Shown piece by piece: positions 4,424-38,365 of a stretch of 64,000 nt of DNA. How positions within the stretch are numbered: position 1 is the first letter of the stretch; each line of letters begins with the position of its first letter. A model generated the notes under the pieces. That model was given only the letters and a program-made list of their open reading frames with translations. It was not told the origin of the DNA and did no database searches. The stretch comes from Escherichia coli. GTDB lineage: Bacteria; Pseudomonadota; Gammaproteobacteria; Enterobacterales; Enterobacteriaceae. Made by a program: the position numbers and the translations under genes. The stretch lies in the NCBI RefSeq assembly GCF_003019035.1, contig NZ_CP027447.1. One strand, 5' to 3'.

Positions 4424-4425
4424 CT

Positions 4426-17189: not shown

Positions 17190-17737
17190 TGCTGGAAGAA
17201 ACCGAAGCCGCACTGCTGGCGCGCGTTCGTGAGTTGTTTGGGGCAACCCTGCGGCAGGTGGAACCCCTTACCGGCACATGGACTAACGAGGATGTGCACC
17301 GTCTCTTTCTGGCCCCGCCATCGGTATTTCTGGCATGGATGGGCTGTGGTGAGGGGCGTACGCGTCGGGAAGTTGAAAGTCGCTGGGCATTTTTTGTCGT
17401 GGCGGAGTTGCTGAACGGGGAACCGGTAAACCGGCCCGGTATTTATCAGATTGTGGAGCGACTGATTGCCGGTGTTAACGGTCAGACGTTTGGCCCGACC
17501 ACCGGGATGAGACTGACGCAGGTCAGAAATCTTTGTGACGACAACCGTATCAATGCCGGTGTGGTGCTTTACGGCGTTCTGTTCAGTGGCACTACCCCGC
17601 TGCCGTCCGTGGTGGACATGGATTCGCTGGATGATTACGAGCGTCACTGGCAGACCTGGAAATTCCCGGACGAAACCCCGGAATTTGCCGCACATATCAA
17701 TGTGAATCAGGAAAAGGATCATGATGCTGAAAATTAA
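17189..17737 (+). CDS. K: Tail completion / terminator protein (Mu K position)
   Basis: 182-aa ORF; assignment by synteny. Confidence 0.55.
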   Translation: MLEETEAALLARVRELFGATLRQVEPLTGTWTNEDVHRLFLAPPSVFLAWMGCGEGRTRREVESRWAFFVVAELLNGEPVNRPGIYQIVERLIAGVNGQTFGPTTGMRLTQVRNLCDDNRINAGVVLYGVLFSGTTPLPSVVDMDSLDDYERHWQTWKFPDETPEFAAHINVNQEKDHDAEN

Positions 17738-17927
17738 ACCCGCAGCGGGAAAAGCCATCCGTGACCCGCTCACGATGAAATTACTGGCTCCGGAGGGAGA
17801 AGAAAAGCCCCGTAACAGTTTCTGGATACGTCGCCTTGCTGCCGGTGATGTGGTTGAAGTCGGGAGCACCGAAAACACGGCGGATGATACCGACGCTGCG
17901 CCGAAAAAACGGAGTAAATCGAAATGA
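17721..17927 (+). CDS. Small hypothetical protein (Mu gp38 position)
   Basis: 68-aa ORF. Confidence 0.45.
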
Positions 17928-19411: not shown

Positions 19412-19420
19412 GGAGCATTT

Positions 19421-19777
19421 ATGGCTGGAAATCAGCGTCAGGGGGTGGCGTTCATCCGTGTCAATGGCATGGAGCTTGAAACGATGGAAGGTGCCTCCTT
19501 CACACCTTCCGGCATCACCCGTGAAGAAGTGACCGGCTCGCGGGTTTATGGCTGGAAAGGTAAACCACGTGCCGCAAAGCTGGAATGCAAAATTCCGGGC
19601 GGTGGTGATATCGGTCTGGATGAAATCATCGGCTGGGAAAACATCACGGCAGAGTTTCAGGCAGACACCGGTGAAACCTGGATGATGGCGAATGCCTGGC
19701 AGGCAGATGAACCGAAAAACGACGGCGGCGAAATTTCGCTGGTACTGATGGCAAAACAAAGCAAACGCATTGCATAA
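19421..19777 (+). CDS. M: Tail tube protein
   Basis: 118 aa, directly after the sheath gene. Confidence 0.8.
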   Translation: MAGNQRQGVAFIRVNGMELETMEGASFTPSGITREEVTGSRVYGWKGKPRAAKLECKIPGGGDIGLDEIIGWENITAEFQADTGETWMMANAWQADEPKNDGGEISLVLMAKQSKRIA

Positions 19778-19786
19778 GGGGAAACA

Positions 19787-20221
19787 ATGGACGAAATGAA
19801 TTTAGGTCCTGAAGCACAGGAACTGCATGACAGCATTGTGGCAGAAATTCAGTCCGGAGTGCTGAAACTGAAAGACGGCCTGCCGTTCGGCACCGGTGAC
19901 GAGACTGAAATGCAGTATGACGTGACACTGCGTGAACTGACCGCAGGCGATATGATTGATGCACAGGCGGCTGCTGAAAAGCTTGTAATGAGCAAGGAAG
20001 GTCCGGTGCTGGTCAGTTCCCCGTCCCGGATGGGACTGGAAATGCTGCGCCGACAGATTGCCAGCGTGGGCTGCATCAAAGGCCCGTTGTCGATGGCGCT
20101 GATTCGTAAGCTGTCTGTCGATGACTTCCAGCGTCTGTCGCTGGCCACAGAAATGTACGACATGGCTGTGGCGGCATCGCTGACACAAGAACGGGGGCGA
20201 GTGGCTGCGGTGCCGGAATGA
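19787..20221 (+). CDS. Y: Putative tail assembly chaperone (Mu Y / gp41 position)
   Basis: 144 aa, between tube and tape measure genes. Confidence 0.6.
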   Translation: MDEMNLGPEAQELHDSIVAEIQSGVLKLKDGLPFGTGDETEMQYDVTLRELTAGDMIDAQAAAEKLVMSKEGPVLVSSPSRMGLEMLRRQIASVGCIKGPLSMALIRKLSVDDFQRLSLATEMYDMAVAASLTQERGRVAAVPE

Positions 20222-20365
20222 TATTGAGAAAGCGGCGACAGCGATTGGCGTTATTCTGAAAAGTGGCCCGGAATGGGCCTTATCCCTTCCGCTGTCCCGC
20301 TTTTTCCGGCACTGCCAGCAGGCTAAAACCCTCTCTCAATATCACCGTTAAATCAGGAAATCTCT

Positions 20366-22438
20366 ATGACCGGGAAACGCTTAAAGGCGTCTGTCATTAT
20401 TGATCTTAATGGCAATCTTTCCCGGCGTTCCCGCCAGTATTCGAACCAGATAAACGCCCTGTCCCGTAGCGGGCAAAGTTCCCTGCGTGCCCTACGTATG
20501 GAGGTTGTGCGCGTTTCTGGTGCCATTGACAGAATGGGTTCACTGTCAACCCGTACATTCCGAATGCTGTCAGCCGGGGCGCTGGGTATTGCTGGCGTGG
20601 GTTACACCGCCAATAAACTGTTTATTGGTGCAGCCGCCCAGCGTGAGCAACAGATTATCGCCATGAACTCGCTGTATCACGGCGATAAGGTCAGAGCGCA
20701 GGCCATGATGGCCTGGGCAAAGCAGAACGCGAAGGACACCACGTGGGGGCTGAGTGGTGTTCTGGATGAGATCCGTTCGTCGAAAGGCTTCGGCATGACG
20801 GATGAACAGACGAAACAGTTCATCACCATGTTGCAGGATCAGGGGGCCATGCACGGCTGGGATTTACCCACTGCACAGGGTGCCTCACTGCAACTGAAAC
20901 AGATGTTTGCCCGCCAGCAAATCACGGCGGCGGATGCCAACCTGCTGACCGGTTACGGTATCAACGTTTATCAGGCGCTGGCGGATGCAACGGGAACGGA
21001 CGTTAAAAAAATCCGTGATCTGGGTACAAAGGGCAAGCTGGGCATGAAATCCATTCTGACGGTATTCAGAACGCTGTCAGAACAGTCAAAAGGTGCACAG
21101 GCCAGTGCGATGAACTCCTGGGACGGGATGTTCGCCCAGATGGAAGCTAACCTGCTTGAATTTCGCATAAAGGTGGCAAACAGCGGCCCCTTTGAAGAAA
21201 TCAAGAACGAGATGCGCCGGGTGCTTAACTGGCACGACATGGCGGATAAATCCGGGGAACTTGACGCACTGGCAGAAAACATTGGTCAGAAATTTCTGAC
21301 CACGTTCAGAACGGTAAAAATCGCGGCGCAGGAATTATGGCGCTGGCTGAAACCGGGTAAAGATGCGCTGGCATGGGTTGACCAGAATATTGTCAGCCTG
21401 AAAAAACTGGCTGCTGTTCTGGTGTCTGTCTGGCTTGCCAATAAAGCCCTGAGAGCAGGCTGGGCTGTGGCAAAACCCTCATGGCAGGTTGCCAGTTATC
21501 CGTTTAAAACCGGGCGTCGTATGTGGCGCTGGATGCGAAACCGCAAACGTGGGCAGGCAGGTCTGCCGGTCCCGGATGCCATGACGTCTGAGACGCTGTT
21601 GCAGGGTATCGGCATTCAGCGTGTGTTTGTCATCAACTGGCCCCGTGGATTTGGTGGCTACGGGAGTGGCGGCGGTCGTCGCGGACGGAGCGGCGGAAGA
21701 ATGGCCCCGCTGTTACCCCGCCAGCCGTTATTGCTGTCCGGGCCACAGCCGCTGGCATTACCTGCACCACGCCCTGTACTGGCATTACCCCCACCCGGCG
21801 TACCGGTAACAGCACGGCCTGCACCATTACCTTTACCCGGTAAATCCGGTCTTCTGAGCAGGCTTGCAGGCAGTGCTGCCGGGCAACTGGTTACGGGAAC
21901 GGTCGGAAAGCTGGCTGATGCCGGGCGTGCTGTTGGCGGATGGTTTTCCGGTATCGGAAACAAACTTGCAGGCAGTGCGATCGGTCGGGTTGTGACAAAA
22001 GGTGCCGGGGCGCTGGGCTGGATGGGGAAAGGTGCCGGTCGTGCGTTGTCACGTCTGGGTGGCCCGGTAATGGGGGCACTCCAGCTTGCCCCCGTCCTGA
22101 TGGATGAGCAGGCGTCAACCCATGAAAAAGCAGGCGCAATTGGCAGTACAGCCGGTGCATGGCTCGGCGGTGCCGTTGGCAGCCTTGCCGGACCGCTGGG
22201 TACGGTTGCCGGTGCCACGCTGGGCAGTGTCGCCGGGGAGTATCTGGGCGGTTTTGTAACCGACCTGTATCAGAAATGGACGGCCCCGGATAAGGAACCG
22301 CAGGAACAAAAAGTGAATGCGGAAGCCTCGCTGCGCGTCGAACTTGGCGAGGGGTTACGTCTGACCAGTTCCCGCGTCACCGAGGACGGTATGGGGCTGA
22401 ATATTTACGCGGGCGATAACTACATTACAGGCTGGTAA
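20366..22438 (+). CDS. Tail tape measure protein
   Basis: 690 aa; helical N-terminal part, Gly/Ala/Pro-rich C-terminal part. Confidence 0.8.
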
Positions 22439-22442
22439 AACC

Positions 22443-23930
22443 ATGTTTGAAGATGCTTTAAATGCCGTTAATGCTGTCCGGGATAAAATCAGCGGTGGTA
22501 AGAAAACAACCGGCAAAGGCACGTTTCGTAACGTGCCGTTTCTCGTCATCGAGGAGCAAAAACAGGCTGGCGGACGTCGCCTGGTTAAACGCGAGTACCC
22601 GTTACGTGATACCGGCGGCGTCAATGACCTGGGGAAAAAGCTTCGCTCCCGTACATTCAGCGCCTGCATTCTGAACAGCAACGCAGAAACAGCCAGAGAT
22701 GAAGCGGGTGCGCTGATGGATGCTCTTGATGCTCCGGGTAGCGGTGAGCTGGTACATCCTGATTTCGGCACTGTGGACGTCATGGTGGATTCATGGGAAT
22801 GCCGCACTAAAGCGGATGAACTGAATTATTACGCGTTCACCGTTACCGTTTATCCGTCGTTGCAGGATACTGCCCCGGACGCAGAGACAGACACCAGTGC
22901 AGCCGTACCGGCACAGGCCGTTGCTGTAACCGGTTCTCTGGGAGATACGCTATCCTCTGTCTGGCAGACCGTAAAAGATGGCACTGCGGCGGCAACCGCC
23001 GTGATGGAAGCTGTAACCGGTGTCATCGATGATATCAGTGATGCGGTGGACAATCTGGGGGTTACGCAGACTGTCAGCGGTCTGATGGGATCGCTTTCTG
23101 CGATGAAAGGCTCTGTGACCAGCCTGATTAACCAGCCTGCCATGCTGGCCTCCTCGCTGATGGGGGCGCTGTCCGGCGTTTCATCGTTATGCGATACCCG
23201 GACAGCATTTTCCACATGGAACCGTCTGGCGCAGCGATTCGAACGTCGCCATGCCGCCACCGCAGGCAGACAGGGGGCAATCACAACCTCGTACAACAGT
23301 CCGGTTGCAGAAAAAAATATTGCCACACTGAACTACGTCATGCTGGCAGCAGCACAGACATACCGAGCGGAGGCAGCAAGCCAGGCACTGACTGCGGCAC
23401 TGGATTTCAGTCGCCGGATGGATAATGCCGCCCGTGCACCTGTACTGGATGCCCCGTCCACCACAACCGGCACAGCCAGCGGGGCCAGCAGCACATCCGC
23501 TACCGTCACACAGGGACAGTTACAGTTAACTGCCATAACCCCGGACGGCGGCTTTTCACAGGTATCCTTTTCAGACAGTGGTACAGCCACGCCCCCGGTA
23601 TTTGAAAGTGTGTCCGATATCGGAAAAACAGCCGCCATGCTGGGGGCTGCACTGGATACCGTCATTCTGACGGCATCTGAGCAGGGCTTTTCGACAGACA
23701 GCGTTCAGCTTACGCAACTGCGTCTGCTGGTTGTTGCCGACCTGGAAAAACGCGGGCTGCAACTGGCGGGCAGTGAAACGCACCGCCTGCCGGAGACGAT
23801 GCCTGCAATGGTGGCCCTGTACCGTTACACAGGAAACAGCCGGAACTGGCAACGGCTGGCCCGCAGGAACGGTATCAGCAACCCGTTGTTTGTTCCCGGT
23901 GGTGTCAGTATTGAGGTGATTAATGAGTAA
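22443..23930 (+). CDS. N: DNA circularisation protein (Mu N)
   Basis: 495 aa; position matches Mu. Confidence 0.8.
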
Positions 23931-25062
23931 TACCGTCACGCTGCGAACGGATGGCAGGCTTTTTACCGGCTGGACGTCAGTCTCTGTCACCCGCTCGATT
24001 GAATCCGTAGCCGGATATTTTGAGCTGGGGGTGAACGTGCCACCGGATACGGATTTATCCGGGCTGGCACCGGGGAAGGCGTTCACGCTGGAAATCGACG
24101 GGCAGATTGTCTGCACCGGTTATATCGATTCACGGCGACGCCAGATGACTGCTGACAGTATGAAAATCACTGTCGCCGGACGTGACAAAACGGCTGACCT
24201 GATTGACTGTGCTGCCGTTTACAGTGGCGGACAGTGGAAAAACCGCACACTGGAGCAGATTGCGCGTGACCTGTGCGCCCCTTATGGCGTTACCGTTCGC
24301 TGGGAGCTTTCCGATAAGGAAAGTTCGGCAGTTTTTCCCGGCTTCACGCTGGACCATTCAGAAACCGTTTATGAGGCGCTGGTGCGTGCCTCCCGCGCAC
24401 GCGGTGTACTGATGACCAGCAATGCCGCCGGAGAGCTGGTATTCAGCCGGGCTGCCAGCACAGCTACTGATGAGCTGGTTCTCGGAGAAAATCTGCTGAC
24501 ACTGGATTTTGAGGAAGACTTCCGCGACCGGTTCAGCGAATACACCGTCAAGGGGTATGCCCGCGCAAACGGTGCTGAGGGTGATGATATTGATGCGAAA
24601 AGTATCGTCTCCCGGAAAGGGACCGCCACTGACAGTGATGTAACCCGTTACAGACCGATGATCATCATTGCTGACAGCAAAATTACGGCGAAGGATGCAC
24701 AGGCCCGCGCCCTGCGTGAGCAACGCCGCAGACTGGCAAAATCCATCACCTTTGAGGCTGAAATTGACGGATGGACTCGCAAGGACGGGCAACTCTGGAT
24801 GCCGAACCTGCTGGTCACTATTGATGCCTCGAAATATGCCATCAAAACCACGGAATTACTGGTCAGCAAAGTCACCCTGATACTGAATGACCAGGACGGG
24901 CTGAAAACCCGCGTCAGCCTTGCACCACGCGAAGGCTTTCTGGTGCCGGTTGAAAGCGACCGTAAAAACAGGAAAGGCGGCGACAGTAACGGCGGTATTG
25001 ATGCGCTGGTTGAAGATTATTATCGCAGACACCCGGAGAAAACGCCGCCGTGGAAAGAGTAA
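23923..25062 (+). CDS. P: Baseplate hub protein (Mu P)
   Basis: 379 aa; synteny. Confidence 0.8.
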
Positions 25063-25643
25063 ATGATTCCGCCCTGAACCGCCTGCTGACGCCGCTGATG
25101 CGTCGTGTGCGCCTGATGCTTGCGCGCGCTGTTGTTAACGTGATTAACGACGGGCGAAAGGTTCAGAACCTGCAGGTCGGCCTGCTGGATGATGAGGAAT
25201 CTGATGAAGTGGAGCGCCTGCAAAATTACGGGCATTTCAGCGTTCCCCTGCCGGGAGCAGAGGCGCTGATTGCCTGTGTAGGCGCACAACGTGATCAGGG
25301 GATTGCCGTTGTGGTGGAAGACCGCCGCTACCGCCCGACAAATCTTGAACCGGGTGATGCAGGCATTTACCACCACGAGGGGCATCGTATCAGGCTGACA
25401 AAGGACGGACGCTGCATCATTACCTGTAAAACGGTTGAGGTTTACGCTGATGAAAGTATGACCGTTGACACACCCAGAACCACGTTTACCGGCGACGTTG
25501 AGATCCAGAAAGGTCTGGGCGTTAAAGGTAAAAGCCAGTTCGACAGCAATATTACTGCCCCGGATGCCATCATCAATGGCAAATCGACGGATAAGCATAT
25601 CCACCGTGGCGACAGCGGCGGAACCACGGGGCCAATGCAATGA
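25050..25643 (+). CDS. Q: Baseplate assembly / spike protein (Mu Q-like)
   Basis: 197 aa; synteny. Confidence 0.75.
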   Translation: MERVNDSALNRLLTPLMRRVRLMLARAVVNVINDGRKVQNLQVGLLDDEESDEVERLQNYGHFSVPLPGAEALIACVGAQRDQGIAVVVEDRRYRPTNLEPGDAGIYHHEGHRIRLTKDGRCIITCKTVEVYADESMTVDTPRTTFTGDVEIQKGLGVKGKSQFDSNITAPDAIINGKSTDKHIHRGDSGGTTGPMQ

Positions 25644-26077
25644 CCGATTTAGCCATTATCTGGACGAACGGACGCGGCGATATTGCACAGGATGGCATTG
25701 ATATGCTGACCGACGACAGCCTGACAACCGATGTGACAATCTCCCTGTTTACAGACCGGCGCGCGCTGGATTCTGACACGCTGCCGGATGGTTCAGATGA
25801 TCGCCGTGGATGGTGGGGTGACAGTTACCGCGACCGCCCCATCGGTTCGCGGTTGTGGCTGTTATCACGTGAAAAAGCCACACCGGATACGCTGGAACGC
25901 GCCAGAGGGTATGCCGAAGAGGCGCTGGAATGGCTGAAAACAGCGGGCCGGGTAAGTGCGATTAACGTCAGAGCGGAACAGTTACATCAGGGCTGGTTAT
26001 ACCTCTACATTGCACTGACATTACCGGATGGTTCCGTTATTCCTTATGAGTTTAAAGCAGCATTTAACGGGGTTTAA
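25640..26077 (+). CDS. V: Baseplate wedge protein (Mu V, lysozyme-fold-like)
   Basis: 145 aa; synteny. Confidence 0.75.
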   Translation: MTDLAIIWTNGRGDIAQDGIDMLTDDSLTTDVTISLFTDRRALDSDTLPDGSDDRRGWWGDSYRDRPIGSRLWLLSREKATPDTLERARGYAEEALEWLKTAGRVSAINVRAEQLHQGWLYLYIALTLPDGSVIPYEFKAAFNGV

Positions 26078-27160
26078 ATGGCTTATTCACCACCGACATT
26101 ATCATCGCTGATTGCCCGTACAGAACAGAATATTGAACAGCGCCTGCCGGGTAGCTGGCCTCAGGCCCGTGAAAAAACGCTGAGTGCCATTGCTTATGCT
26201 CAGGCGGGCCTTGCTGCCGGTTGTCACGAGCATATTTCATGGGTTGGACGGCAGATTATCCCGTCGACAGCAGATGAAGATGAGTTGCTGGAGCACTGCC
26301 GGTTCTGGGGCGTGCGCCGCAAACAGGCGACAGCCGCCAGCGGCCCGCTGACTGTCACCACATCGGCAGCGACCACCATTCCTGCCGGTACACGCTGGCA
26401 GCGTGCTGATGGTGTGGTTTACAGCCTGGCTGATGCCATTGTGATTGACCGTGCAGGAACGACGGAAATTACCGTTACCGCACTGGCTGCCGGTGAAGCA
26501 GGAAATACCGGTGAGAATACCCTTTTAACGTTGATCACCCCGGTTGCCTGTGTTGTTTCCGATGCCATCACTGTAAAAGGGTTTTCCGGTGGGGCTGATA
26601 TTGAGAGTGCAGCGGAGCTGCTGTCACGGCTGGAATATCGTGTCCAGTATCCTCCGTTCGGCGGTAATCAGTTTGATTACGTCCGCTGGGCACGTGAAGT
26701 CAGCGGCGTTACCCGTGCCTGGTGTTTTCCGACATGGAAAGGCGGTGGCACAGTCGGGGTGACGTTTGTTATGGATAACCGGAGCAATATTTTTCCACAA
26801 CCGGCAGACGTGGAACGCGTGGCAGATTATATCGCCGGTCATACTGACCCGATCACCGGTCTGATTGTCGGACAGCCTGACGGTGTAAATGTCACTGTAT
26901 TTGCGCCAAAGGCAAAGCCGGTAAATCCACGGATTTATATATCACCGAAGACAGCCGAACTGAAACAGGCTATTACCCACGCCATTAATACCATGTTTTT
27001 TAATGAGGTGACGCCGGGCGGCGCACTTGCCCCCTCCCGTATTATCCGTGCGGTGGCAGGTGTTACCGGTCTGGATGATTTTGAAGTGCGTTTCCCGACA
27101 GAGATCCAGCGTTCGGAGAATACGGAACTGTTAACACCGGGGACAATTGAATGGCTGTAA
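26078..27160 (+). CDS. W: Baseplate J-like protein (Mu W)
   Basis: 360 aa; synteny. Confidence 0.8.
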   Translation: MAYSPPTLSSLIARTEQNIEQRLPGSWPQAREKTLSAIAYAQAGLAAGCHEHISWVGRQIIPSTADEDELLEHCRFWGVRRKQATAASGPLTVTTSAATTIPAGTRWQRADGVVYSLADAIVIDRAGTTEITVTALAAGEAGNTGENTLLTLITPVACVVSDAITVKGFSGGADIESAAELLSRLEYRVQYPPFGGNQFDYVRWAREVSGVTRAWCFPTWKGGGTVGVTFVMDNRSNIFPQPADVERVADYIAGHTDPITGLIVGQPDGVNVTVFAPKAKPVNPRIYISPKTAELKQAITHAINTMFFNEVTPGGALAPSRIIRAVAGVTGLDDFEVRFPTEIQRSENTELLTPGTIEWL

Positions 27161-27693
27161 CACCCTATCAGACGGCCTTTCTGCAATTACTGCCGTCAGG
27201 GCTTGCCTGGAATAAAAGCCCCGACAGCAAATTATCTGCGCTGGCGCAGGCCATCAGCGACGTGATTGCCACTGCGGCGGATGATGCGCGGCAAATGCTG
27301 CGGGAGCGTTTCCCGTCCACATCCCGCTGGTATCTGGGGGAGTGGGAATCATTTCTGGGGTTGCCGGACTGTACCAGCGAAAACGGCACCTTGTCCGAAC
27401 GCCAGCGGGCTGCCGCGAATAAAATGCGTATGACCGGCAATCTGAGTCGGCGCTTTTATGAATGGCTGGCTGCGCAGTACGGTTTTACCGTCAGGCTGAC
27501 GGATTCCACAGAAGGCCAGTGGGTTACGCAGGTCAATATTTACGGTATTAAAAATTATCGCAACGCAACGGTGCTGGATAATGTCCTGACGCCGTTACGT
27601 GTTTATGAATCGGGTGCGCTGGAATGTTTACTGGAGAAATATAAACCCGCGCATCAGATTTATAAATTTGTTTACCATGACGGAGATAACTAA
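27151..27693 (+). CDS. R: Tail protein (Mu R)
   Basis: 180 aa; synteny. Confidence 0.7.
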   Translation: MAVTPYQTAFLQLLPSGLAWNKSPDSKLSALAQAISDVIATAADDARQMLRERFPSTSRWYLGEWESFLGLPDCTSENGTLSERQRAAANKMRMTGNLSRRFYEWLAAQYGFTVRLTDSTEGQWVTQVNIYGIKNYRNATVLDNVLTPLRVYESGALECLLEKYKPAHQIYKFVYHDGDN

Positions 27694-29048
27694 TGTTTTA
27701 TATTGATAACGACAGCGGCGTAACCGTCATGCCGCCCGTATCCGCCCAGCGTAGTGCTATCGTTCGCTGGTTTTCAGAAGGTGACGGGAATAATGTTATC
27801 ACATGGCCCGGCATGGACTGGTTTAATATTGTTCAGGCGGAGTTATTAAACACGCTGGAAGAAGCTGGTATTCAACCGGATAAAACAAAATTAAACCAGC
27901 TTGCACTGTCCATTAAAGCCATTATGAGCAATAACGCGCTGCTGATAAAAAATAACCTCAGCGAAATTAAAACTGCCGGGGCATCAGCACAGCGTACAGC
28001 ACGTGAAAATCTGGATATCTATGATGCCAGCCTGAACAAAAAAGGACTCGTTCAGCTAACCAGTGCCACTGACAGCCCCAGTGAAACGCTGGCAGCCACC
28101 GCAAAAGCGGTGAAAATTGCGATGGATAATGCCAATGCCCGTCTGGCAAAAGACCGGAACGGAGCAGATATTCCCAATAAGCCGCTGTTTATCCAAAACC
28201 TCGGTTTACAGGAAACGGTAAACAAGGCTGGTAACGCTGTTCAGCGTTCTGGCGATACAATGACCGGAAAACTGAATCTACCACAGACATCTGCATTCGG
28301 CGTTAATACCGATAATGCACTGGGTGGTAATTCCATTACTCTCGGAGATAACGACACCGGTATTAAACAGGGCGGCGATGGTGTCCTTTTATTCTATTTA
28401 AATGGACAACTGATATTTGGGCTTCAACCCACATCCGCTGATTTTTATAAGCGAGTTGCCTACATTCATCAGGGAGTAGCTCCAGATGGGAGTGGCGCAT
28501 TTGCAGACCAGTTAAATAATGCCACCGCGCCTTTTGTTCAGACGCAGTTTGCCTGGAATCCCACTCCTGGCGGTCATTACGTACCGATAGCTAAGGGCTT
28601 GTCCATTCGCAATGGACAGGGGTATCCAGGTGCGGTCAGCTTTGGTTATTTACTAACTGAACAAATGGGATTTCCCATACCATGCATTCATATGCGTGGA
28701 GATTACGGAGCTGATGCTTTGTGGCAGTTTAACCCGAACGATAAATCTTTTATTTCACCGGGGGCTCTTGTTGCGGGTGGCATCCGTTATAACACCGATG
28801 GAAATATATTTGGCGGGTGTTGGGGTTCAAATTTAGCTGATTATCTCAATAGCACATATGTAAGAGACATTCGACTTGGTAGCGCAGAATCAATATCAGC
28901 ATGGCGAGGCCCTGGTTACTGGGATACTTCTGGATATGTTCTGACCGCAGCCGGAAACAGCAACACCGATGAATTTATTGATACATTAACCAGAAGGCCT
29001 ATTCAGAAGTTGATTGGTGGGACATATTATAACGTTGTGAGTATTTGA
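27693..29048 (+). CDS. S: Tail fibre protein S: constant part outside the G segment, variable part inside
   Basis: 451 aa; gix site at 28188-28215 lies within the gene; C-terminus YYNVVSI parallels the S' C-terminus WYNVASV. Confidence 0.8.
28188..28215 (+). repeat. gix recombination site (left) for Gin invertase
   Basis: TTATCCAAAACCTCGGTTTACAGGAAAC; inverted copy at 31023-31048 with one mismatch in the 26 aligned bases. Confidence 0.85.
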
Positions 29049-29049
29049 C

Positions 29050-29577
29050 ATGATGCATTTAAAAAACATTAAAGCAGGGAACCCAAAAACACCTGAACAA
29101 TACCAGTTAACCAAAAAAGCTGGAGTGGTCTGGCTTTATACTGAAGATGGTAAAAACTGGTACGAAGAACAAAAAAACTTTCAACCAGATACTATAAAAA
29201 TTGCATACGATAAAAATAATGTGATTGTTACCGTAAGCAAAGATGTTTCAACGATTAACCCGGAAGGTTTAAGTGTTGTTGAAGTATCCGATATTACGGC
29301 AAATCGTCGCGCAGACAATAACGGAAACTGGATGTTTCTGGATGGTAAAGTAGTAAAGCGGGAATATACAAAACAGGAGCTGCAACAGCAGGCAGAGTTA
29401 CAAAAATCCGCTTTGCTTTCCGAAGCGGAGTCTGTGATTCAACCGCTGGAACGTGCTGTCAGGCTGAATATGGCAACTAATGAGGAACGCGCACGACTGG
29501 AGTCATGGGAACGCTACAGTGTTCTGGTCAGCCGTGTGGATACGGCAAATCCTGAATGGCCACAAAAGCCTGAATAA
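29050..29577 (+). CDS. U: Tail fibre assembly protein U
   Basis: 175 aa; paralogous to the U' ORF on the opposite strand. Confidence 0.8.
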
Positions 29578-29582
29578 AAATT

Positions 29583-29602
29583 AAGGCCCGATAGCGGGCC
29601 TT
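29583..29602. terminator. Hairpin between convergent U and U', possible bidirectional terminator
   Basis: AAGGCCCG-ATAG-CGGGCCTT; A/T-rich flank on the U' side. Confidence 0.5.
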
Positions 29603-29605
29603 GTC

Positions 29606-30139
29606 TCATTCTGGTTGTTCCGGGAATGTTACAGGAAGAACAGAGGTATCTGTGGCATCAACCTGCTGCATGTATAACATCCAGTTAATGAGTCTTTGCC
29701 TGTCTGAATCGCTGATAATTCCCAGCGCAAGCTGTGTTTGCCAGCACTGCGTTTCCTCTCTGGCCTGTCGCAGCAAAATCTGTTTCTGAATTTCAGCCAG
29801 TTGACGTAGTTCTTCATCAGTCCGGGGGCGTTTCATGACCTTGCCATCCTGAAACACCCAGTCACCGAGAATATCGGCCCGGCGATTCGCTGTCGTGTCG
29901 GGTAATTCGACAACGCTCATTCCTTCCGGGTTAATAGACGACACATCTTTTTCAATATAGCGAATGATACCTCTGTCATCGTAAGCGATTTTTAGTGTGT
30001 CTGCCTGAAAGGCTTTTTGTGCCTCATACCAGTTCTGACCATCTTCAGCGTAAAGCCAGATAACACCATGTCTCTTTGTTAACTCATACTGTTCCAGTGT
30101 TTTAGCATTACCCGCTTTTATGTTCTTTAAGTGCATCAT
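29606..30139 (-). CDS. Tail fibre assembly protein U' (silent in this orientation)
   Basis: 177 aa, same N-terminus as U ([11 protein letters not shown]...). Confidence 0.8.
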   Translation of the reverse strand: MMHLKNIKAGNAKTLEQYELTKRHGVIWLYAEDGQNWYEAQKAFQADTLKIAYDDRGIIRYIEKDVSSINPEGMSVVELPDTTANRRADILGDWVFQDGKVMKRPRTDEELRQLAEIQKQILLRQAREETQCWQTQLALGIISDSDRQRLINWMLYMQQVDATDTSVLPVTFPEQPE

Positions 30140-30140
30140 A

Positions 30141-30998
30141 TTAAACGCTCGCTACATTATACCAGGTGCCATTTATATACTTTTGAACGGGTCTGTAATA
30201 AACGCCCGCTATATTATCGGCAGAGTTGGACCCTGTATCCTGAACATTAATACCAGACAATACATGACCTGACGGGCACTTGAAATTCCATGTTTGCCAG
30301 TTGTTCACACCATGATATTGCTGTGAACCAAGACGAACATCTTTTACGTATCGGGAATCAAAGTTACTCCAGTTACTTGGTTGTATGTGACCGTTTACAG
30401 CAAATATCACCGAATTATCTGTATTTCGCTGACTATAGAAATGCCAGCCTGAATCATCACCAAGCTCTGCAACAGTTGGTCTTGATGAAGTGCCCCATAA
30501 ATTAAAACCTACGTTTTTCGTGGAGTTGTTGGAGCTGGATAGCGTGAATTTTTTACCATCCCCGGCCTGAACGTTTTTAAAAGCAATAGCAACTCCATTC
30601 TGAAAGCGGAATACTCGCTGACTATTAGCGTAAACATCCAGAATACCGTCTCCATTCTGTTTAAATCCGGTATCATTATCACCAAGAACAATAGAGCTAC
30701 CACCTAACGCATTCGTCGTACCAACTCCAAGGCTGCCATTAATGACGGCATTAACAAGAATATTTAGTGCATCCCATTTCAGCGTCATCAGGTCTTTTGT
30801 TGTGGTGCTTTGTTTGCTTCTCCATTTGAAATATTCATTGCCGTTGTCGCCTGTTTCAAACCACATGTATGAATCAGTGTCACCATCGGCATCATTTTTA
30901 AATCCAATCTTCGCCCAGTCAGTATTTCGAATCCAGGCAAGGATTGAGTCATTTTCAAAAGTAAGCCCACCGGACAAAGTATCGCCATTTTTTTGCAC
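30141..30998 (-). CDS. Alternative tail fibre variable part S' (promoterless, silent in this orientation)
   Basis: 285-aa ORF from first ATG; real reading frame should run from the gix site. Confidence 0.75.
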   Translation of the reverse strand: MQKNGDTLSGGLTFENDSILAWIRNTDWAKIGFKNDADGDTDSYMWFETGDNGNEYFKWRSKQSTTTKDLMTLKWDALNILVNAVINGSLGVGTTNALGGSSIVLGDNDTGFKQNGDGILDVYANSQRVFRFQNGVAIAFKNVQAGDGKKFTLSSSNNSTKNVGFNLWGTSSRPTVAELGDDSGWHFYSQRNTDNSVIFAVNGHIQPSNWSNFDSRYVKDVRLGSQQYHGVNNWQTWNFKCPSGHVLSGINVQDTGSNSADNIAGVYYRPVQKYINGTWYNVASV

Positions 30999-31022
30999 GG
31001 CATTACCAGCCCTGTTTACCGT

Positions 31023-31048
31023 TTCCTGTAAACCGAGGTTTTAGATAA
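31023..31048 (-). repeat. gix recombination site (right)
   Basis: TTCCTGTAAACCGAGGTTTTAGATAA, inverted relative to 28188-28215. Confidence 0.85.
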
Positions 31049-31102
31049 TGGCCGTTTCCGGCCTGCATGGCATGATTTGCGATTTTGGACGGGAGATTCA
31101 GC

Positions 31103-31684
31103 GTGCTGATTGGCTATGTAAGGGTATCAACAAATGACCAGAATACAGACCTGCAACGAAACGCTCTTGTTTGTGCAGGATGTGAACAAATATTTGAAGA
31201 TAAATTAAGCGGAACAAGGACAGACAGACCTGGATTAAAGCGCGCTTTAAAGCGTCTTCAAAAAGGTGACACACTGGTTGTCTGGAAACTGGATCGCCTC
31301 GGGCGAAGCATGAAACATCTGATTTCTCTCGTCGGAGAACTACGGGAGCGAGGGATTAATTTTCGCAGCCTTACTGACAGTATTGATACGTCATCCCCAA
31401 TGGGGCGTTTTTTCTTCCACGTTATGGGTGCCCTGGCTGAAATGGAACGAGAACTAATCATCGAGCGAACGATGGCTGGACTTGCTGCCGCCAGAAATAA
31501 AGGCCGTATTGGTGGGCGACCACCTAAACTAACCAAAGCGGAATGGGAGCAGGCCGGGCGTTTATTAGCACAAGGAATCCCCCGCAAGCAGGTTGCATTG
31601 ATCTACGATGTGGCCCTGTCAACTCTGTATAAAAAACACCCCGCGAAACGAGCGCATATAGAAAACGACGATCGAATCAATTAA
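31103..31684 (+). CDS. gin: Gin serine DNA invertase
   Basis: Probable GTG start at 31103 (VLIGYVRVSTNDQNTDLQ...), 193 aa; serine recombinase resolvase/invertase family. Confidence 0.9.
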   Translation: MLIGYVRVSTNDQNTDLQRNALVCAGCEQIFEDKLSGTRTDRPGLKRALKRLQKGDTLVVWKLDRLGRSMKHLISLVGELRERGINFRSLTDSIDTSSPMGRFFFHVMGALAEMERELIIERTMAGLAAARNKGRIGGRPPKLTKAEWEQAGRLLAQGIPRKQVALIYDVALSTLYKKHPAKRAHIENDDRIN

Positions 31685-31778
31685 ATCGATCGGTAATACA
31701 GATCGATTATGCCCCAATAACCACACTCAACCCATGATGTTTTTTAAGATAGTGGCGAATTGATGCAAAGGAGGTGAG
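31665..31778 (+). promoter_or_regulatory. com-mom promoter region with three clustered GATC Dam sites
   Basis: GATC at 31670, 31688 and 31701; CCCCAATAACC C-box-like motif; GGAGG ribosome-binding site before com. Confidence 0.65.
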
Positions 31779-31967
31779 ATGAAATCAATTCGCTGTAAAA
31801 ACTGCAACAAACTGTTATTTAAGGCGGATTCCTTTGATCACATTGAAATCAGGTGTCCGCGTTGCAAACGTCACATCATAATGCTGAATGCCTGCGAGCA
31901 TCCCACGGAGAAACATTGTGGGAAAAGAGAAAAAATCACGCATTCTGACGAAACCGTGCGTTATTGA
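31779..31967 (+). CDS. com: Com, zinc-finger translational activator of mom
   Basis: 62 aa with CxxC...CxxC; overlaps the mom reading frame. Confidence 0.85.
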
Positions 31968-32634
31968 GTATGAAGGCCAGATTGTTGGCTATGGTTCAAA
32001 GGAGCTGCGCGTTGAAACCATATCCTGCTGGCTGGCCCGCACAATTATTCAGACAAAGCACTATTCCCGCCGTTTTGTGAATAACTCTTACCTCCACCTG
32101 GGAGTGTTCAGCGGACGCGATCTGGTTGGCGTTCTCCAGTGGGGATATGCCCTTAACCCCAACTCAGGTCGTCGTGTCGTGCTTGAAACGGATAACCGGG
32201 GCTATATGGAGTTGAATCGCATGTGGCTACACGACGACATGCCCCGCAACTCTGAATCACGGGCCATCAGCTACGCGCTGAAAGTTATCAGATTACTGTA
32301 TCCGTCAGTGGAGTGGGTTCAGTCCTTTGCTGACGAACGCTGCGGACGCGCAGGCGTTGTGTATCAGGCGTCGAATTTTGATTTTATTGGCAGCCATGAA
32401 AGCACGTTCTACGAGCTGGATGGTGAGTGGTATCACGAGATAACGATGAACGCAATTAAGCGCGGTGGACAACGAGGCGTGTATTTACGGGCTAATAAAG
32501 AGCGTGCCGTGGTGCACAAATTTAATCAGTATCGCTACATCAGGTTCCTGAACAAGCGAGCAAGGAAGCGACTAAATACTAATCTATTCAGGATCCAACC
32601 ATATCCAAAATCAACTCTGACTAGTATCAAATAA
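31888..32634 (+). CDS. mom: Mom DNA modification protein (anti-restriction adenine modification)
   Basis: 248-aa ORF from first in-frame ATG, overlapping com; real start uncertain. Confidence 0.8.
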
Positions 32635-32769
32635 CTTATTTATTCCTGCTGAAAAGCAGCTCCTCATGGCATAAAATTGTTCACGTGAGTTTAAAATGAC
32701 CAAATGGCAGTACAGTATTTGGTCATTTTATGGGGTGAATTTTAAAGTCAAAACGATGGTAAGGTGCAT

Positions 32770-33105
32770 ATGAAAAAAATACTCATAGCAGTACTACTTT
32801 GCTTTGGTGTTCTTTCTGCTAATCAGGCAATAGCGGCTGTTACCTTAAGCGGTAAGTATCCTGCATGCATATCTGCTAATGAATTCGAGCGATTAAGCTC
32901 AATTTTGCAACACGAAGATCAAGAGGCGTTTGAAGAGATCTTTAAGACATCATGCTTTATGCCTAAAAAGGGGGTTAAAGTTGATAAAGTTGTTTCTATG
33001 GGGTGGACCAGTGGAGTTGCGCATGTCAAAGTTTATGTAAAAGGCAATCTTTACGATCTTTGGACTAACACCGAAAATCTTCAGTCCGAGAAGGCTGGTA
33101 AATAA
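32770..33105 (+). CDS. Small secreted protein of unknown function between mom and the Mu right end
   Basis: ATG at 32770 preceded by AAGGTG; signal peptide MKKILIAVLLCFGVLSANQAIA; mature part ~90 aa with two Cys; AT-rich. Confidence 0.55.
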   Translation: MKKILIAVLLCFGVLSANQAIAAVTLSGKYPACISANEFERLSSILQHEDQEAFEEIFKTSCFMPKKGVKVDKVVSMGWTSGVAHVKVYVKGNLYDLWTNTENLQSEKAGK

Positions 33106-33330
33106 CGCTGTAATCAACGTGTAATCACATCTCCTACCAGCTATCGCCTGATAAAGTTAGGTGATAGCTATTTCAATACTCTCTAGTTTCACTGAAAGCA
33201 CGAAACTTAATACCTCCATTCCAGATTGCTTAATAATCGAGCATTTTTATCTTGAATGTTTTTGCGCGCTTTATCAGCCATACCCTAAGTGATCCCCATG
33301 TAATGAATAAAAAGCAGTAATTAATACTGC

Positions 33331-33407
33331 TGTTTCATTTGAAGCGCGAAAGCTAAAGTTTTCGCATTTATCGTGAAACGCTTTCGCGTTTTTCGTGCGC
33401 CGCTTCA
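33331..33407 (+). repeat. Mu right-end terminal sequence with MuA transposase binding sites (attR)
   Basis: TGTTTCATTTGAAGCGCGAAAG and TTTTCGCATTTATCGTGAAACG repeats; terminus ...CGTGCGCCGCTTCA. Confidence 0.85.
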
Positions 33408-33412
33408 TTCAG
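33408..33412. repeat. Candidate 5-bp target-site duplication copy (TTCAG)
   Basis: First five host bases after the Mu end; the matching copy would flank the off-window left end. Confidence 0.4.
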
Positions 33413-33706
33413 GGTGAACGTCCACTCTTTTTGATCGTCAGACGCTTTCCAGCTACTTGCCAGATCGCCTTCAACGTCGGTTGAGCCTTTATCACCGTCC
33501 GTTTTGTACTGAACCAGTCGCTGATAAGACGGGTAGGTCACTGTCCAGTCGTTATTATCAATTGTCACCGCTGGGTCGAGGGTTTGTGGGTCGGCAGCTT
33601 TACCGATCACCAGCATATCTTTCGGTACGGCGGCGTGCGCAACCGGCATTGTTGTGGCAAGGACGATCGCGAGCAATGTAGGACGAAACAAAATCGATCT
33701 CTTCAT
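33408..33706 (-). pseudogene. ddpA: ddpA 5' fragment (D-Ala-D-Ala dipeptide-binding protein), truncated by the prophage
   Basis: Signal peptide and N-terminal ~99 codons (MKRSILFRPTLLAIV...DQKEWTFTL) run straight into the Mu terminus. Confidence 0.8.
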
Positions 33707-33719
33707 GACAGTTTCCTGA

Positions 33720-34301
33720 TTAACTGGCGTGCTGTGTGCCAGGGGATATAAAACAGGTGAATTGATCAGCGAGTAGTGGGTAACTCGCTGCCTGGGGTAA
33801 TTCGAAGTGCCACCATTCGCTCGGGATACCGACAAAGCCACCGCCAGTCATAATCGCATTCAGCAACAGCCGATTGCGCTGAGCGGCTGGCGGGACGGAA
33901 GGGTGATAAGCATGGGAACGTTCGTGCATTTCATCGAACTCTGCACCCATATCCAGTATGTTCCCGTGCTCATCACGAAGCGTCAGGTCGATCGCTGTGC
34001 CACGGCTGTGATTAGAACCGACCGCCACATCAACAACATATTGCGGGTCTGGGCAGGCTTGCCACAACATCGCCTGTGCTTGTTGTGGGCGATACGCATC
34101 GTAAATCACCAGTTGTAAGCCTGACAGCTGGGCGATACTGATACTTTTCGCCAGCGCAGTAATCGCATCCTTGTGTAACAGACAACGCGCTTGCTGATAA
34201 ATAGCTTTGCCTGTGATGTTATCAGCACAGGCGTATTTCAATTCGATCTCCAGATCAGGGAAGATCACGGCTAAATCAACCAGTTCGGTGGTATCCGACA
34301 T
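33720..34301 (-). CDS. ddpX: D-Ala-D-Ala dipeptidase
   Basis: 193 aa, VanX-like. Confidence 0.9.
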   Translation of the reverse strand: MSDTTELVDLAVIFPDLEIELKYACADNITGKAIYQQARCLLHKDAITALAKSISIAQLSGLQLVIYDAYRPQQAQAMLWQACPDPQYVVDVAVGSNHSRGTAIDLTLRDEHGNILDMGAEFDEMHERSHAYHPSVPPAAQRNRLLLNAIMTGGGFVGIPSEWWHFELPQAASYPLLADQFTCFISPGTQHAS

Positions 34302-34558
34302 AAACGGTTCCTGTATAAGACAAAAATTGCTGCGCTTTCCGCTTATGCAGATCTCATGCCACGCCGGGATAAGCGCCAGAATGCTGGCTTAAAGTTATAT
34401 TTTTTAACTTTTGATCAACATTTGTGCATCGTAATGCAGTTTTGGTGCAAGAGGGGAAGTTAAGGAAGGAATCTCCCGGAATCGTAGCTGAAATCACAGT
34501 ATTTAAGTGACAGTGTCACGTTAAAGGAAAACCCGCGAGTGCGGGCGAGAGGAATTTG

Positions 34559-36958
34559 TCAGATTTTCAGCGGTAACACGCTGCTCATCCAGCCTGGAAT
34601 TTCTTCGGCGGGCAGGGGGCGGGAAAAGAAATATCCCTGAATAACGCGACAGTGGATCTTGCGTAGCATCTCAAATTGCTCTTTGGTTTCGACGCCTTCC
34701 GCCACGACGGTTAAATTAAGGCTTTGCCCAATGCTGGTAATGGCTTCAAGTAAGGCAAGGATGCGTTTTTCGGTCAGACAACGATCGACAAAACTTTTGT
34801 CAATTTTGATTTCCGTTACTGGAAGACTGACTAAGCGGGATAATCCGGAAAAGCCCGTGCCAAAATCATCTACCGATAAACCCACGCCCATATCGCGCAG
34901 GATCTGAATGCGTTTAAAGATTTCGGTATCGTGTTCCATCATCATGCTTTCCGTGATTTCCACCGTCAGCTGGTGGCCGTTAATACCCCAGGCTTGCATT
35001 GCATCAGACACCTGATTAGGCAGCTGATTACTGCGAAAGTGCAGCGCCGACAAGTTCACGGATAACGCCGGGATATGAATATTCTGGCTACGCCATTCTG
35101 CTAACTGACGGCAAGCTTCCGCGATGACCCAGCGTCCAATATTTTCGATTTCACCGATCTCTTCTGCGAGAGGAATAAACCGTGAAGGGGGCACATGACC
35201 ATGCAGGGGATCGTGCCAGCGAGCAAGGGCTTCGATGCCGTACAGTTCACCCGTTTCTGCGAAGATTTGTGGCTGGTAAACCAGTTTCAGTTGGTTATTG
35301 CTAATTGCTTCTTTCAGCGCCGCGCCTAAAACCAAACGCTCTTTTACCATTTCGTTCATCGCCGGGCTGAAGAACTGCCAGCCGTTACCGCCATTTTTGC
35401 GAATAAAATCCATTGCATTGTGAGCAGTGGAGAGCAGGTAATCGCGGTTTTTACCCACGTCGTAGCTGATGCCAATGCTCAAGGTGAGCGGGAATGGTTT
35501 ATCGTCAATCATTATCGGCTTGCTGACCACATTCCGTAGCTCATCGGCGATCTGCGTAATGTTACTGACGTCGTTTTCCAGGCTCACGAGGACAAACTGC
35601 GTACCTTCGATACGACAGAGATATTGATCCGGTTTGAGTTTTTCACGAAAGCGATTGACCACTTCCAGCAATGCCTGATCGGCCCACGCATAGCCAAGGC
35701 TATCAATCACATCCTGAATATGGTCAACACCGATGAGATACACCACCGGAGAGACGGCTTTGTCGACCAGGTCATCGAGGTAATTGTGCAGGTTATTGCG
35801 ATTTGGCAGACCGGTCATCGGATCAAATTGGATGAGTTGTTCAATATGCTGACGGCTTTTTTCCTGTTCCAGCGCCAGCGCGGCCATATGCTGGCTAATA
35901 TCTGCCACGCGTTCGATAAAGGCGCTGGTTTCTGCTCCTGACGAGGTTTTAATTTGCAGGATCCCCGCCGGCGCACCATCACGCTGACGAATGGTCGCTG
36001 ACCAGCTTTGCGCATTTTGAACTTCTGCACCGTGCGAAGATGACGCCCAGTGTATCGGCATCCCGTTGCGCAGCGCGAACAGCGAAACATGCGATTCGTT
36101 GAGTACAGATTCGATGTTACGACAAATGATTTCCCCCATTTCATGAAATGGCGGGCTGCTGCACATGGCGGCGAGAATATTGCCTTCAAGCTGGCGGATT
36201 TGCCGTTCTTCGGTGATATCCGAGAAGGTCATTACCAGGTTCTGCAGATGCGCGAGCACGTCATAAACCGGGCTGATAGAGGCTTTAATCCAGATTTTTT
36301 CACCGGTGCGCGTCAACAGCAGAAATTCATCCTGATCGCGGGCGGTTTTCCATAGCAACTGTTGTAAACGAATGCGGTTATCGGCAGGGAATTCAGGAAT
36401 GTTCAGGAGTGTATCGGGCTGCATACCGCTGGCTTCGCTAATGCAGTAACCAAACATTTCGGTAAATGCGCGATTGCACTGCACAATATGGCGTTCCGGA
36501 TCGAGGACAATCACCGGTCGGTCGAGATGGTCAACAGCAATAATCAATTGTCGGGTCTGTTCTTTTTGCGCCATTTCTACGCTGGCATCCCGTACCAGCG
36601 CCAGGTAATAAACTTTCCCCTCGGCGCTCACTTTCGATAGCGCAAAACGGGTCCAGATTTTACTGCCGTCTTTTTTCTCCAGCTGCAGCTCCCGACTCAT
36701 CCCCTCGACGCGCGCTTTACCGCCTTCACGGTTATGACGAATGTATTCAGGATGCGCAGGACGCAAATCCCGCGGAATCAGCATATCAATGTTATTGCCA
36801 ATGACTTCTTCACGTTTGTACCCCCAGAGCTTCTCTGCGGCGGGGTTGAAAAACATCACTTCATCATTTTCGTTAATTAACACCGCGCCCATCATATTTT
36901 GCTCAAGGGCGGGGAAAAAAATGCCATCGGCGGCATTATCCGCATCGGTTAGCTTCAT
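34559..36958 (-). CDS. dosP: Oxygen-sensing c-di-GMP phosphodiesterase (haem-PAS, GGDEF, EAL)
   Basis: 799 aa from MKLTDADN...; EAL-domain signature in the C-terminal part. Confidence 0.9.
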   Translation of the reverse strand: MKLTDADNAADGIFFPALEQNMMGAVLINENDEVMFFNPAAEKLWGYKREEVIGNNIDMLIPRDLRPAHPEYIRHNREGGKARVEGMSRELQLEKKDGSKIWTRFALSKVSAEGKVYYLALVRDASVEMAQKEQTRQLIIAVDHLDRPVIVLDPERHIVQCNRAFTEMFGYCISEASGMQPDTLLNIPEFPADNRIRLQQLLWKTARDQDEFLLLTRTGEKIWIKASISPVYDVLAHLQNLVMTFSDITEERQIRQLEGNILAAMCSSPPFHEMGEIICRNIESVLNESHVSLFALRNGMPIHWASSSHGAEVQNAQSWSATIRQRDGAPAGILQIKTSSGAETSAFIERVADISQHMAALALEQEKSRQHIEQLIQFDPMTGLPNRNNLHNYLDDLVDKAVSPVVYLIGVDHIQDVIDSLGYAWADQALLEVVNRFREKLKPDQYLCRIEGTQFVLVSLENDVSNITQIADELRNVVSKPIMIDDKPFPLTLSIGISYDVGKNRDYLLSTAHNAMDFIRKNGGNGWQFFSPAMNEMVKERLVLGAALKEAISNNQLKLVYQPQIFAETGELYGIEALARWHDPLHGHVPPSRFIPLAEEIGEIENIGRWVIAEACRQLAEWRSQNIHIPALSVNLSALHFRSNQLPNQVSDAMQAWGINGHQLTVEITESMMMEHDTEIFKRIQILRDMGVGLSVDDFGTGFSGLSRLVSLPVTEIKIDKSFVDRCLTEKRILALLEAITSIGQSLNLTVVAEGVETKEQFEMLRKIHCRVIQGYFFSRPLPAEEIPGWMSSVLPLKI

Positions 36959-36982
36959 AATTACCTCTGCATCCTGACGCAT

Positions 36983-38365
36983 CTAAAGACTGGCTTTCCA
37001 GAGTTCAACACGGTTTCTACCTCGTCTTTTGGCGATATACAGAGCTTCATCGGCTATTTGAATGAGGCGCTCATAGTCAGGATGACCATTAAACATGGCG
37101 GCACCGATGGAAAGTGAGAGGGCAATATCTTCGCCGTTTGCGGCTTTCAGTTTGGTTTTCTCCACCCGACTGCGAATACGTTCTGCGGTACGTAACGTTT
37201 CGTTTTCCGAAGCTTCAGTCAAAACAATGATAAATTCATCGCCCCCGTAGCGGAAAACATAATCACTACTGCGGACGTTGTCATAAAAGGCCTGAGAGAC
37301 TTTACGCAGAATTTCATCGCCAGTGTTATGGCCCCACGTATCGTTAATCTCTTTGAATTTATCAACGTCAATAATCAGCACTGACAGCGGTGTACCGGTC
37401 CGGTTGGCATGGGCAATTTCGCGTTTGAAGATCGTCGGCAGGAAACGGCGGTTAAGTAATTTCGTCAGTACATCCATACCGACTTCGTGGCGCGATACTT
37501 CTTCAAACAATTCACGCAACAAGGTAATAATTTGCGATACGGTATTTCTTATCTGTAATAAAAATTTCACCCGTAAACTTCTGTTATTCAAATTCCTGGT
37601 GTTACGCATGGTTTGATTGAAAATACCGTCGAAATCCTGAATCAGACGGGAGATATGGCCCACTTCGGCTATGCCGCTAAAATAATGTCGACCTTTATGG
37701 TTAAACCACAGGCCAAAATCAGCCTGGCTTAAAGGCAAACTACTGCCTAAATCAGAATCCAGCAGGACTTTATAGATAATATCTATTTCCCATGAAAGTA
37801 TTGAGGCTATTTGCCGTTCTTTTTCTTCTTCGGCGTTTTCCAGTAACGAGAAGATACGATAGTTTTCATCTTCCTTTGAGGCACTACTGTCACTAAAGGT
37901 AAACGCGCGGGTCATCACCTCCATAGCGATATCAATACTGTTAATAGAGAAATGGTAGACCTGAAGTTTTTCTGCGGCGGAATAATCCGAAGAGAAGATT
38001 ACCGGATAGAGGATTTTTTTCAGCACCCGAAACCCCATCTCGACAATTTCTACCGGAATTCCTATGCGGGCATGCACTTCCGCGACGGTATGCTGGATTT
38101 GTATTAGCCTTTCGACATCGTCAACCTGGGCAGAAAGCACGTTAATAATCCAGCGTTCCATCGCACTTTTCAACTGCCGCTCAACTTGTTCATTACTCAA
38201 GAATTCTTCGGCATGCGGGTCGATGCGGACAATTCGATAAAACTCAATACTCAGATAATGAGCATGCGCAACGGCAATTTCCGCGGCTTTAGCACGAATG
38301 AGCGGATCTGCTTGTTCGACAAGCCCGGTCCACTCATCTTTCATTCTTTTAAAATACATCTCCAT
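36983..38365 (-). CDS. dosC: Oxygen-sensing diguanylate cyclase (globin-coupled sensor)
   Basis: 460 aa; GGDEF motif (RYGGDEF). Confidence 0.9.
   Translation of the reverse strand: MEMYFKRMKDEWTGLVEQADPLIRAKAAEIAVAHAHYLSIEFYRIVRIDPHAEEFLSNEQVERQLKSAMERWIINVLSAQVDDVERLIQIQHTVAEVHARIGIPVEIVEMGFRVLKKILYPVIFSSDYSAAEKLQVYHFSINSIDIAMEVMTRAFTFSDSSASKEDENYRIFSLLENAEEEKERQIASILSWEIDIIYKVLLDSDLGSSLPLSQADFGLWFNHKGRHYFSGIAEVGHISRLIQDFDGIFNQTMRNTRNLNNRSLRVKFLLQIRNTVSQIITLLRELFEEVSRHEVGMDVLTKLLNRRFLPTIFKREIAHANRTGTPLSVLIIDVDKFKEINDTWGHNTGDEILRKVSQAFYDNVRSSDYVFRYGGDEFIIVLTEASENETLRTAERIRSRVEKTKLKAANGEDIALSLSIGAAMFNGHPDYERLIQIADEALYIAKRRGRNRVELWKASL

Follow-up and report, generated by a model that had tools for sequence, protein, structure and literature searches.

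A Mu-type prophage lies within ddpA of Escherichia coli and separates ddpX from the remainder of the ddpXABCDF operon

The region considered here is a 64,000-nucleotide stretch of Escherichia coli DNA (contig NZ_CP027447.1 of assembly GCF_003019035.1), which we refer to in its entirety as the window. Positions 1..33407 (+) are occupied by a Mu-like (Muvirus) prophage, assigned from 97-98% identity to Mu, PhiR68_1, D108, and SfMu, from an unbroken series of ORFs in Mu order, and from its offset to an independent draft assembly of the same clone. That series can be followed leftward as far as window position 1, a point about 3.7 kb from the left end of a Mu-type genome, and all large Mu ORFs are open. 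The window covers prophage coordinates ~3,690 to 37,097, so that the first 3,689 bp, comprising attL, c, ner, A, and the 5' part of B, lie off-window to the left. These genes could be read in the draft assembly, GCA_012647285.1, on contig AASYSS010000018.1 (hereafter L032), which aligns co-linearly and without a single mismatch to window 1-11760 and was found via a rare protein encoded at window 1342-1761, after exact-occurrence counts for ten early-region proteins. L032 encodes c (171 aa), ner (72 aa), A (666 aa), and B (312 aa; PF09077), with MuA carrying the domains PF02316, PF09039, PF02914 DDE_2, and PF09299 Mu-transpos_C; the C-terminal part of B is found at window 58-564.

Toward its right end the prophage contains an invertible G segment (27693-30998), in which S and U lie on the plus strand (27693-29577; 451 and 175 aa) and S' and U' on the minus strand (29606-30998). 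It is followed by the rightmost canonical Mu genes, which together span 31085..32634 (+): the invertase gene gin (31085..31684, +) and com (31779..31967, +), both identified as ORFs and from the annotation of matching phages, and mom (31888..32634, +), whose product matches PF25680 Mom with E=2.8e-75. Taken together, the 37,097-bp prophage appears intact at the level of its predicted ORFs. Short-read assemblies of the clone break at the G segment: contigs with the right junction end in gin, and the contig with the left junction ends ~32 kb into the prophage.

The alignment to Mu is interrupted between mom and the terminal 134 bp by a 670-bp insert (32604..33273, +) that Mu lacks. The insert holds an ORF of 111/113 aa (32764-33105, +) with a Sec-type signal peptide, whose product had no match in Pfam, PHROGs, NCBIfam, PADLOC, or PDB sequences, and the insert DNA had none in 5,426 complete E. 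coli genomes, distant mode included. Public contigs that encode the exact 111-aa protein number 612 and come from E. coli and Cronobacter; for a 113-aa variant there are 335, from Salmonella, and Shigella flexneri has truncated forms. Among phages the sole homologue, at 57% identity, is located at the right end of Yersinia phage vB_YenM_42.18. The ORF looks like an uncharacterised cargo ('moron') gene of a kind that some Mu-like phages typically carry at their right end.

The Mu right end (attR; 33274..33407, +) aligns with positions 36584-36717 of Mu NC_000929 at 98.5% identity, up to the last phage base. These last 134 bp end in ...CTTCA at 33407, with the terminal dinucleotide CA at 33406-33407, and the terminal sequence is ...GCCGCTTCA. 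They contain three MuA sites: R3 (33331-33352, +; 0 mismatches to the consensus), R2 (33359-33380, -; 1 mismatch), and R1 (33381-33402, -), which has 4 mismatches to the consensus by eye and is the same sequence as the R1 site of Mu. The feature had originally been placed from 33331 onward; this position is indeed the start of R3, but the region of identity to the Mu end begins further left, at 33274. The scan used what we take to be the MuA-binding-site consensus, as a lead only, and gave four matches in the window in total, a count that none of 100 shuffles reached. At the left end, matches were found at L032 4975-4996 and 5121-5142, and again no shuffle reached the observed count. A further match in the window, AGTTTCACTGAAAGCACGAAAC at 33185-33206 (+) with 2 mismatches, sits within the 670-bp insert, ~200 bp from the true Mu end, and may be what remains of a different Mu-like right end.

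The right end also contains a perfect 7-bp hairpin, AGCAGTA/TACTGCT (33313..33331, either strand), flanked by T-runs on both strands, which was detected by scan and by RNA folding (z = -4.0). On the incoming minus strand it is positioned 76-95 nt inside Mu and is followed by UUUUUAUU, making it terminator-like for transcripts arriving from ddpX and the truncated ddpA, if a weak one with 7 bp and 3 G-C pairs. It is terminator-like on both strands and falls between the cargo gene and mom on one side and the R3 site on the other. Mu has an imperfect stem here; the prophage has TG where Mu has AT, its sole two differences within the terminal 134 bp, and these complete the perfect hairpin. A scan of window 30000-40000 against Rfam at gathering thresholds found nothing.

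Immediately beyond the last phage base, host sequence begins: homology with intact ddpA stops exactly at 33408. (A BLAST extension of the ddpA homology 11 bp into Mu, to 33397, was rejected as a gapped chance match, GTGCGCCGCTTCA vs TAGCGTCGTTC.) The 299 host bases at 33408..33706 (-) are the 5' 299 nt of ddpA, encoding the signal peptide and amounting to 99 codons + 2 nt, with the ATG at 33706-33704 on the minus strand. Over nt 1-299 they match the RefSeq-annotated ddpA of E. coli SCU-301 exactly, and there are 2 differences to the gene of strain E7-1N7. The interrupted ORF is accordingly ddpA, the second gene of the operon, which encodes a family-5 periplasmic binding protein, and the proposed position of a Mu right end within ddpA was borne out against both of these uninterrupted loci.

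The ddpA frame had been described as running for ~99 residues without interruption into the Mu terminus. Exactly 99 residues (and 2 nt) precede the junction, and the frame stays open across it: a hybrid codon, AA|T, is followed by 12 Mu-encoded codons and a TGA at 33368-33370. The resulting chimeric ORF (33368..33706, -) encodes 112 aa, of which the first 99 are those of DdpA and the other 13 come from the Mu end; its C-terminus is ...TFTL-NEAAHEKRESVSR. Intact DdpA matches PF00496 with E=3.3e-100; of the 368 positions in the SBP_bac_5 model, the stub matches only 2-26. No DdpA-specific model exists in NCBIfam.

On the host side, ddpX (33720..34301, -), the first gene of the operon, encodes an intact VanX-type D-Ala-D-Ala dipeptidase that is identical to SCU-301 DdpX, matches PF01427 with E=5.9e-79, and scores 330 bits against the equivalog NF007557 (cut-off 176). 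A predicted sigma54-type promoter motif, TGGCATGAGATCTGCA (GG-N10-GC; 34346..34361, -), is found 60 nt upstream of the ddpX ATG, in keeping with the expectation that ddpX and its promoter had been kept on this side of the prophage. In K-12 the ddpX promoter is NtrC/RpoN-dependent and drives ddpXABCDF (PMC8743547). Further upstream are dosP (34559..36982, -) and dosC (36983..38365, -), which are the normal upstream neighbours of ddpX, so the host flank is in its native order; it is 100.0% identical to SCU-301 over 24.6 kb.

Because the left end of the prophage lies off-window, its junction was read in L032. There the host sequence ...GCATTGTCC TTCAG abuts the Mu left end, TGTATTGATTCAC, with Mu starting at L032 4970; the bases ahead of it are ...GGCAAATTTAGCATTGTCC TTCAG (TTCAG at 4965-4969). 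The last host base at this junction is ddpA nt 295, and the right junction resumes at nt 299, meaning that nt 295-299 are duplicated. The right-hand copy is the TTCAG at 33408..33412 (CTGAA in the ddpA sense), the same pentamer as at L032 4965-4969, and the suggestion that it represents one copy of a 5-bp duplication thus proved right. The element itself has the ends 5'-TG...CA-3', with TGTATTG... at L032 4970 and ...GCTTCA at window 33407. Authentic Mu integration is marked by a 5-bp duplication and prefers targets of the form N-Y-S-R-N (PMC2602771). TTCAG fits N-Y-(G/C)-R-N, a weak point since 1/8 of pentamers fit by chance.

The original prediction held that the rest of ddpA and the downstream ddp genes would be found beyond a left end about 37 kb away, and this is what L032 contains: ddpA from nt 295 on, then ddpB, ddpC, ddpD, and ddpF, at the far side of a prophage of 37,097 bp as measured from the offset to L032. 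The 4,969-nt left flank, comprising the ddpA remainder, ddpB, ddpC, ddpD, and part of ddpF, has 0 mismatches to SCU-301. The order dosC-dosP-ddpX-ddpA-ddpB-ddpC-ddpD-ddpF is on one strand throughout, with dosC to the ddpA stub in the window and the remainder in L032. When the empty site was rebuilt by joining both flanks minus one TTCAG, it differed from the uninterrupted SCU-301 locus by 1 mismatch in 7,964 bases, with no gap. Both junctions, the duplication, and the empty site show a simple insertion without loss of host DNA.

A junction seen from one side might instead reflect a rearrangement or an assembly chimera, whether by Mu-Mu recombination, a Mu-mediated inversion or deletion, or misjoined contigs, such that the two prophage ends do not flank a single target site. 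Mu replication is well known to generate rearrangements of this kind, the left end is off-window, and the junction is found in none of the 5,426 complete RefSeq E. coli genomes. The original prediction had named a left junction without a matching repeat, or in a different host gene, as a sign of rearrangement; yet in L032 the repeat is TTCAG, the gene is ddpA, and the sequence continues exactly at nt 295, and the flanks join into a gap-free empty site. The right junction was, moreover, assembled independently in at least 5 SRA runs (five match the window over 5-10 kb to within 0-2 bases), and the left junction is present in 4 contigs among those read. We consider a rearranged or chimeric junction extremely improbable.

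For the source chromosome itself, the left flank is expected, from the same-clone assembly L032, to read ...GCATTGTCCTTCAG of ddpA, and ~3.7 kb upstream of the window ...GGCAAATTTAGCATTGTCCTTCAG should be followed directly by TGTATTGATTCACTTGAAG. Four exact-pattern scans of the genome_contigs and metagenome_contigs collections, covering the left junction with a duplication of 0-10 bp and the right junction, returned 0 matches. Because the right junction is also absent from both collections, they do not hold the clone, and these negatives are uninformative about the left junction. Look-ups of the likely products of the ddpA 3' remainder (369 aa and 318 aa) led to unrelated ddpA pseudogene alleles and to no Mu junction. 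The exact 75-aa Kil protein (window 580-807) was too common for the same purpose: it has 8,750 listed blocks, spread over many different insertion sites, and ddp is not among the 10 places listed. Mu-like prophages are very common across public enterobacterial assemblies.

The exact 112-aa DdpA-Mu fusion protein is encoded on 57 public contigs (NCBI and Logan). Since Mu integrates nearly at random (PMC4406740), the identical position and duplication argue for one event that has been inherited by a clone. That clone is precisely marked by its Mu insertion at ddpA nt 295-299 together with the exact 112-aa fusion sequence.

Comparison with known phages places the element among natural relatives of Mu. 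With Mu (NC_000929) it shares 98.5% identity over the terminal 134 bp, TG...CA ends, a 5-bp duplication fitting N-Y-S-R-N, the MuA/MuB genes, a G segment with gin, and com/mom. It differs from Mu in having 97.2-97.6% identity over only 51-77% of the compared segments, in its early-region accessory genes, in the 670-bp cargo insert between mom and attR, and in its repressor, which has 171 aa here vs 196 aa in Mu-type loci. The closest sequenced phage for the early region is PhiR68_1 (PV340575), with 100% coverage and 97.5% identity over window 1-6000 and with a repressor (171 aa), Ner, and A of the same lengths as in L032; at the right end, however, PhiR68_1 matches only up to mom and is without the 670-bp insert. 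D108 and Mu_3F6 are, like Mu and PhiR68_1, 97-98% identical over the aligned parts. The Shigella phage SfMu (NC_027382), a natural Mu-like temperate phage, has the same overall organisation and right end (PMC4406740), but its identity is 93.7-95.6% with partial coverage, and mom is the last annotated gene in its record. Among the 5,426 complete RefSeq E. coli genomes searched, the closest prophage is 98.6% identical. In its accessory genes, as far as these alignments indicate, the prophage is a mosaic. It carries all the diagnostic traits of a Mu-type transposable phage that sequence can reveal.

These comparisons also bear on whether the prophage is natural and potentially active or could instead be a laboratory Mu/Mud construct or a domesticated, defective remnant of Mu. 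Point defects are possible on this kind of evidence, and Mu is widely used as a laboratory mutagen. Set against this are its full length of 37,097 bp with all large ORFs open and both ends intact, its identity to Mu of only 97-98%, accessory genes missing from laboratory Mu, and its presence in many independent sequencing runs and assemblies. A remnant or construct seems to us very unlikely.

We therefore favour, with a probability of roughly 93%, a reading in which a 37,097-bp Mu-type phage inserted in ddpA by MuA/MuB transposition, with a 5-bp duplication and no host DNA lost or rearranged, after which the insertion was inherited clonally, with loss of DdpA and polarity on ddpBCDF as likely results. 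The transposition pathway, the polarity, and the phenotype are what we infer from the structure of the locus. Infecting phage DNA would have been integrated by MuA/MuB, with target cuts staggered by 5 bp at ddpA nt 295-299; gap repair would then have left TTCAG on each side, and the c repressor would maintain the lysogen. The event is in this respect an ordinary, textbook Mu insertion mutation, and Mu-type insertion within a gene is known to yield a null allele (PMC2602771; PMC4406740).

The insertion leaves ddpA in two pieces, a 5' stub and a 3' remainder that has neither a promoter nor a usable in-frame start, and it explains the ddpA pseudogene call in the annotation. Mu-type phages are not known to excise precisely in the course of their life cycle, which makes the split effectively permanent; a reversible switch is not expected. 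The arrangement resembles the prophages of 'active lysogeny' (e.g. Listeria comK) in that a prophage within a host coding sequence separates its two halves, but those elements are known to use site-specific recombinases and precise excision, whereas the prophage described here is a transposable phage flanked by a target duplication.

Under the insertion reading, ddpX would remain behind its own NtrC/sigma54 promoter, and ddpBCDF would be placed 37.1 kb further from it, such that a transcript from that promoter must cross the phage genes in antisense. Loss of DdpA together with strong polarity on ddpBCDF would be predicted to abolish D-Ala-D-Ala uptake by Ddp while the cytoplasmic dipeptidase is kept. 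It is plausible that ddpBCDF are uncoupled from the ddpX promoter and have lost expression, because transcripts would meet a terminator-like hairpin 76-95 nt inside Mu and then 37 kb of phage DNA in antisense. In K-12 under nitrogen depletion, ddpF is induced 2.2-fold vs 104.5-fold for ddpX (PMC8743547); the distal genes are thus weakly coupled to the promoter even in the intact operon.

A different outcome would follow if transcription of the Mu repressor gene continued out of the left end. The operon would then be rewired, with low, constitutive, nitrogen-independent expression of ddpBCDF while ddpX is still NtrC-regulated. The c gene (L032 5309-5824) is transcribed toward the left end and shares its strand with the ddpA remainder and ddpBCDF; from the c stop codon to the Mu left end, a simple consensus scan of that strand detected no terminator-like sites. 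That scan, however, is a crude test, and the ~1.25 kb of untranslated ddpA remainder would be expected to favour Rho-dependent termination. Furthermore, without DdpA the permease would be left without its cognate binding protein, and any transcription would be of little functional effect. We see only a small chance that the operon has been rewired in this manner.

Smaller still, in our estimation, is the likelihood that the insertion represents a selected or regulatory change, either through placement of ddpBCDF under read-through from the Mu repressor gene or through transcription from the ddpX promoter in antisense into the cargo gene and mom. In the latter case, strong NtrC-driven ddpX transcription into the Mu right end would link the nitrogen status of the host to prophage expression.

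Elsewhere in E. coli, too, ddpA is lost repeatedly. Four loci from other E. coli lineages carry ddpA lesions that are independent of the Mu insertion, and the lesions comprise a deletion starting at nt 161, a 1-bp deletion at nt 543, CAA>TAA at codon 190, and TTA>TAA at codon 176. Because ddpA has been broken independently in several other lineages, its loss appears to be tolerated and is probably close to neutral. Recurrent inactivation suggests that Ddp uptake is dispensable in many niches, which is mildly informative on the debated role of the ddp operon. The significance of the present case is small beyond bookkeeping. It does provide a clean natural example of insertional inactivation by a Mu-type phage, for which SCU-301 is a near-isogenic empty-site strain for comparison. 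Two further fragmented ddpA loci look like error-rich assemblies. The 369-aa fragment that results from the deletion at nt 161 is listed in 401 blocks, a 318-aa ddpA fragment is found in 371 blocks, and a 137-aa N-terminal fragment is encoded on 294 contigs.
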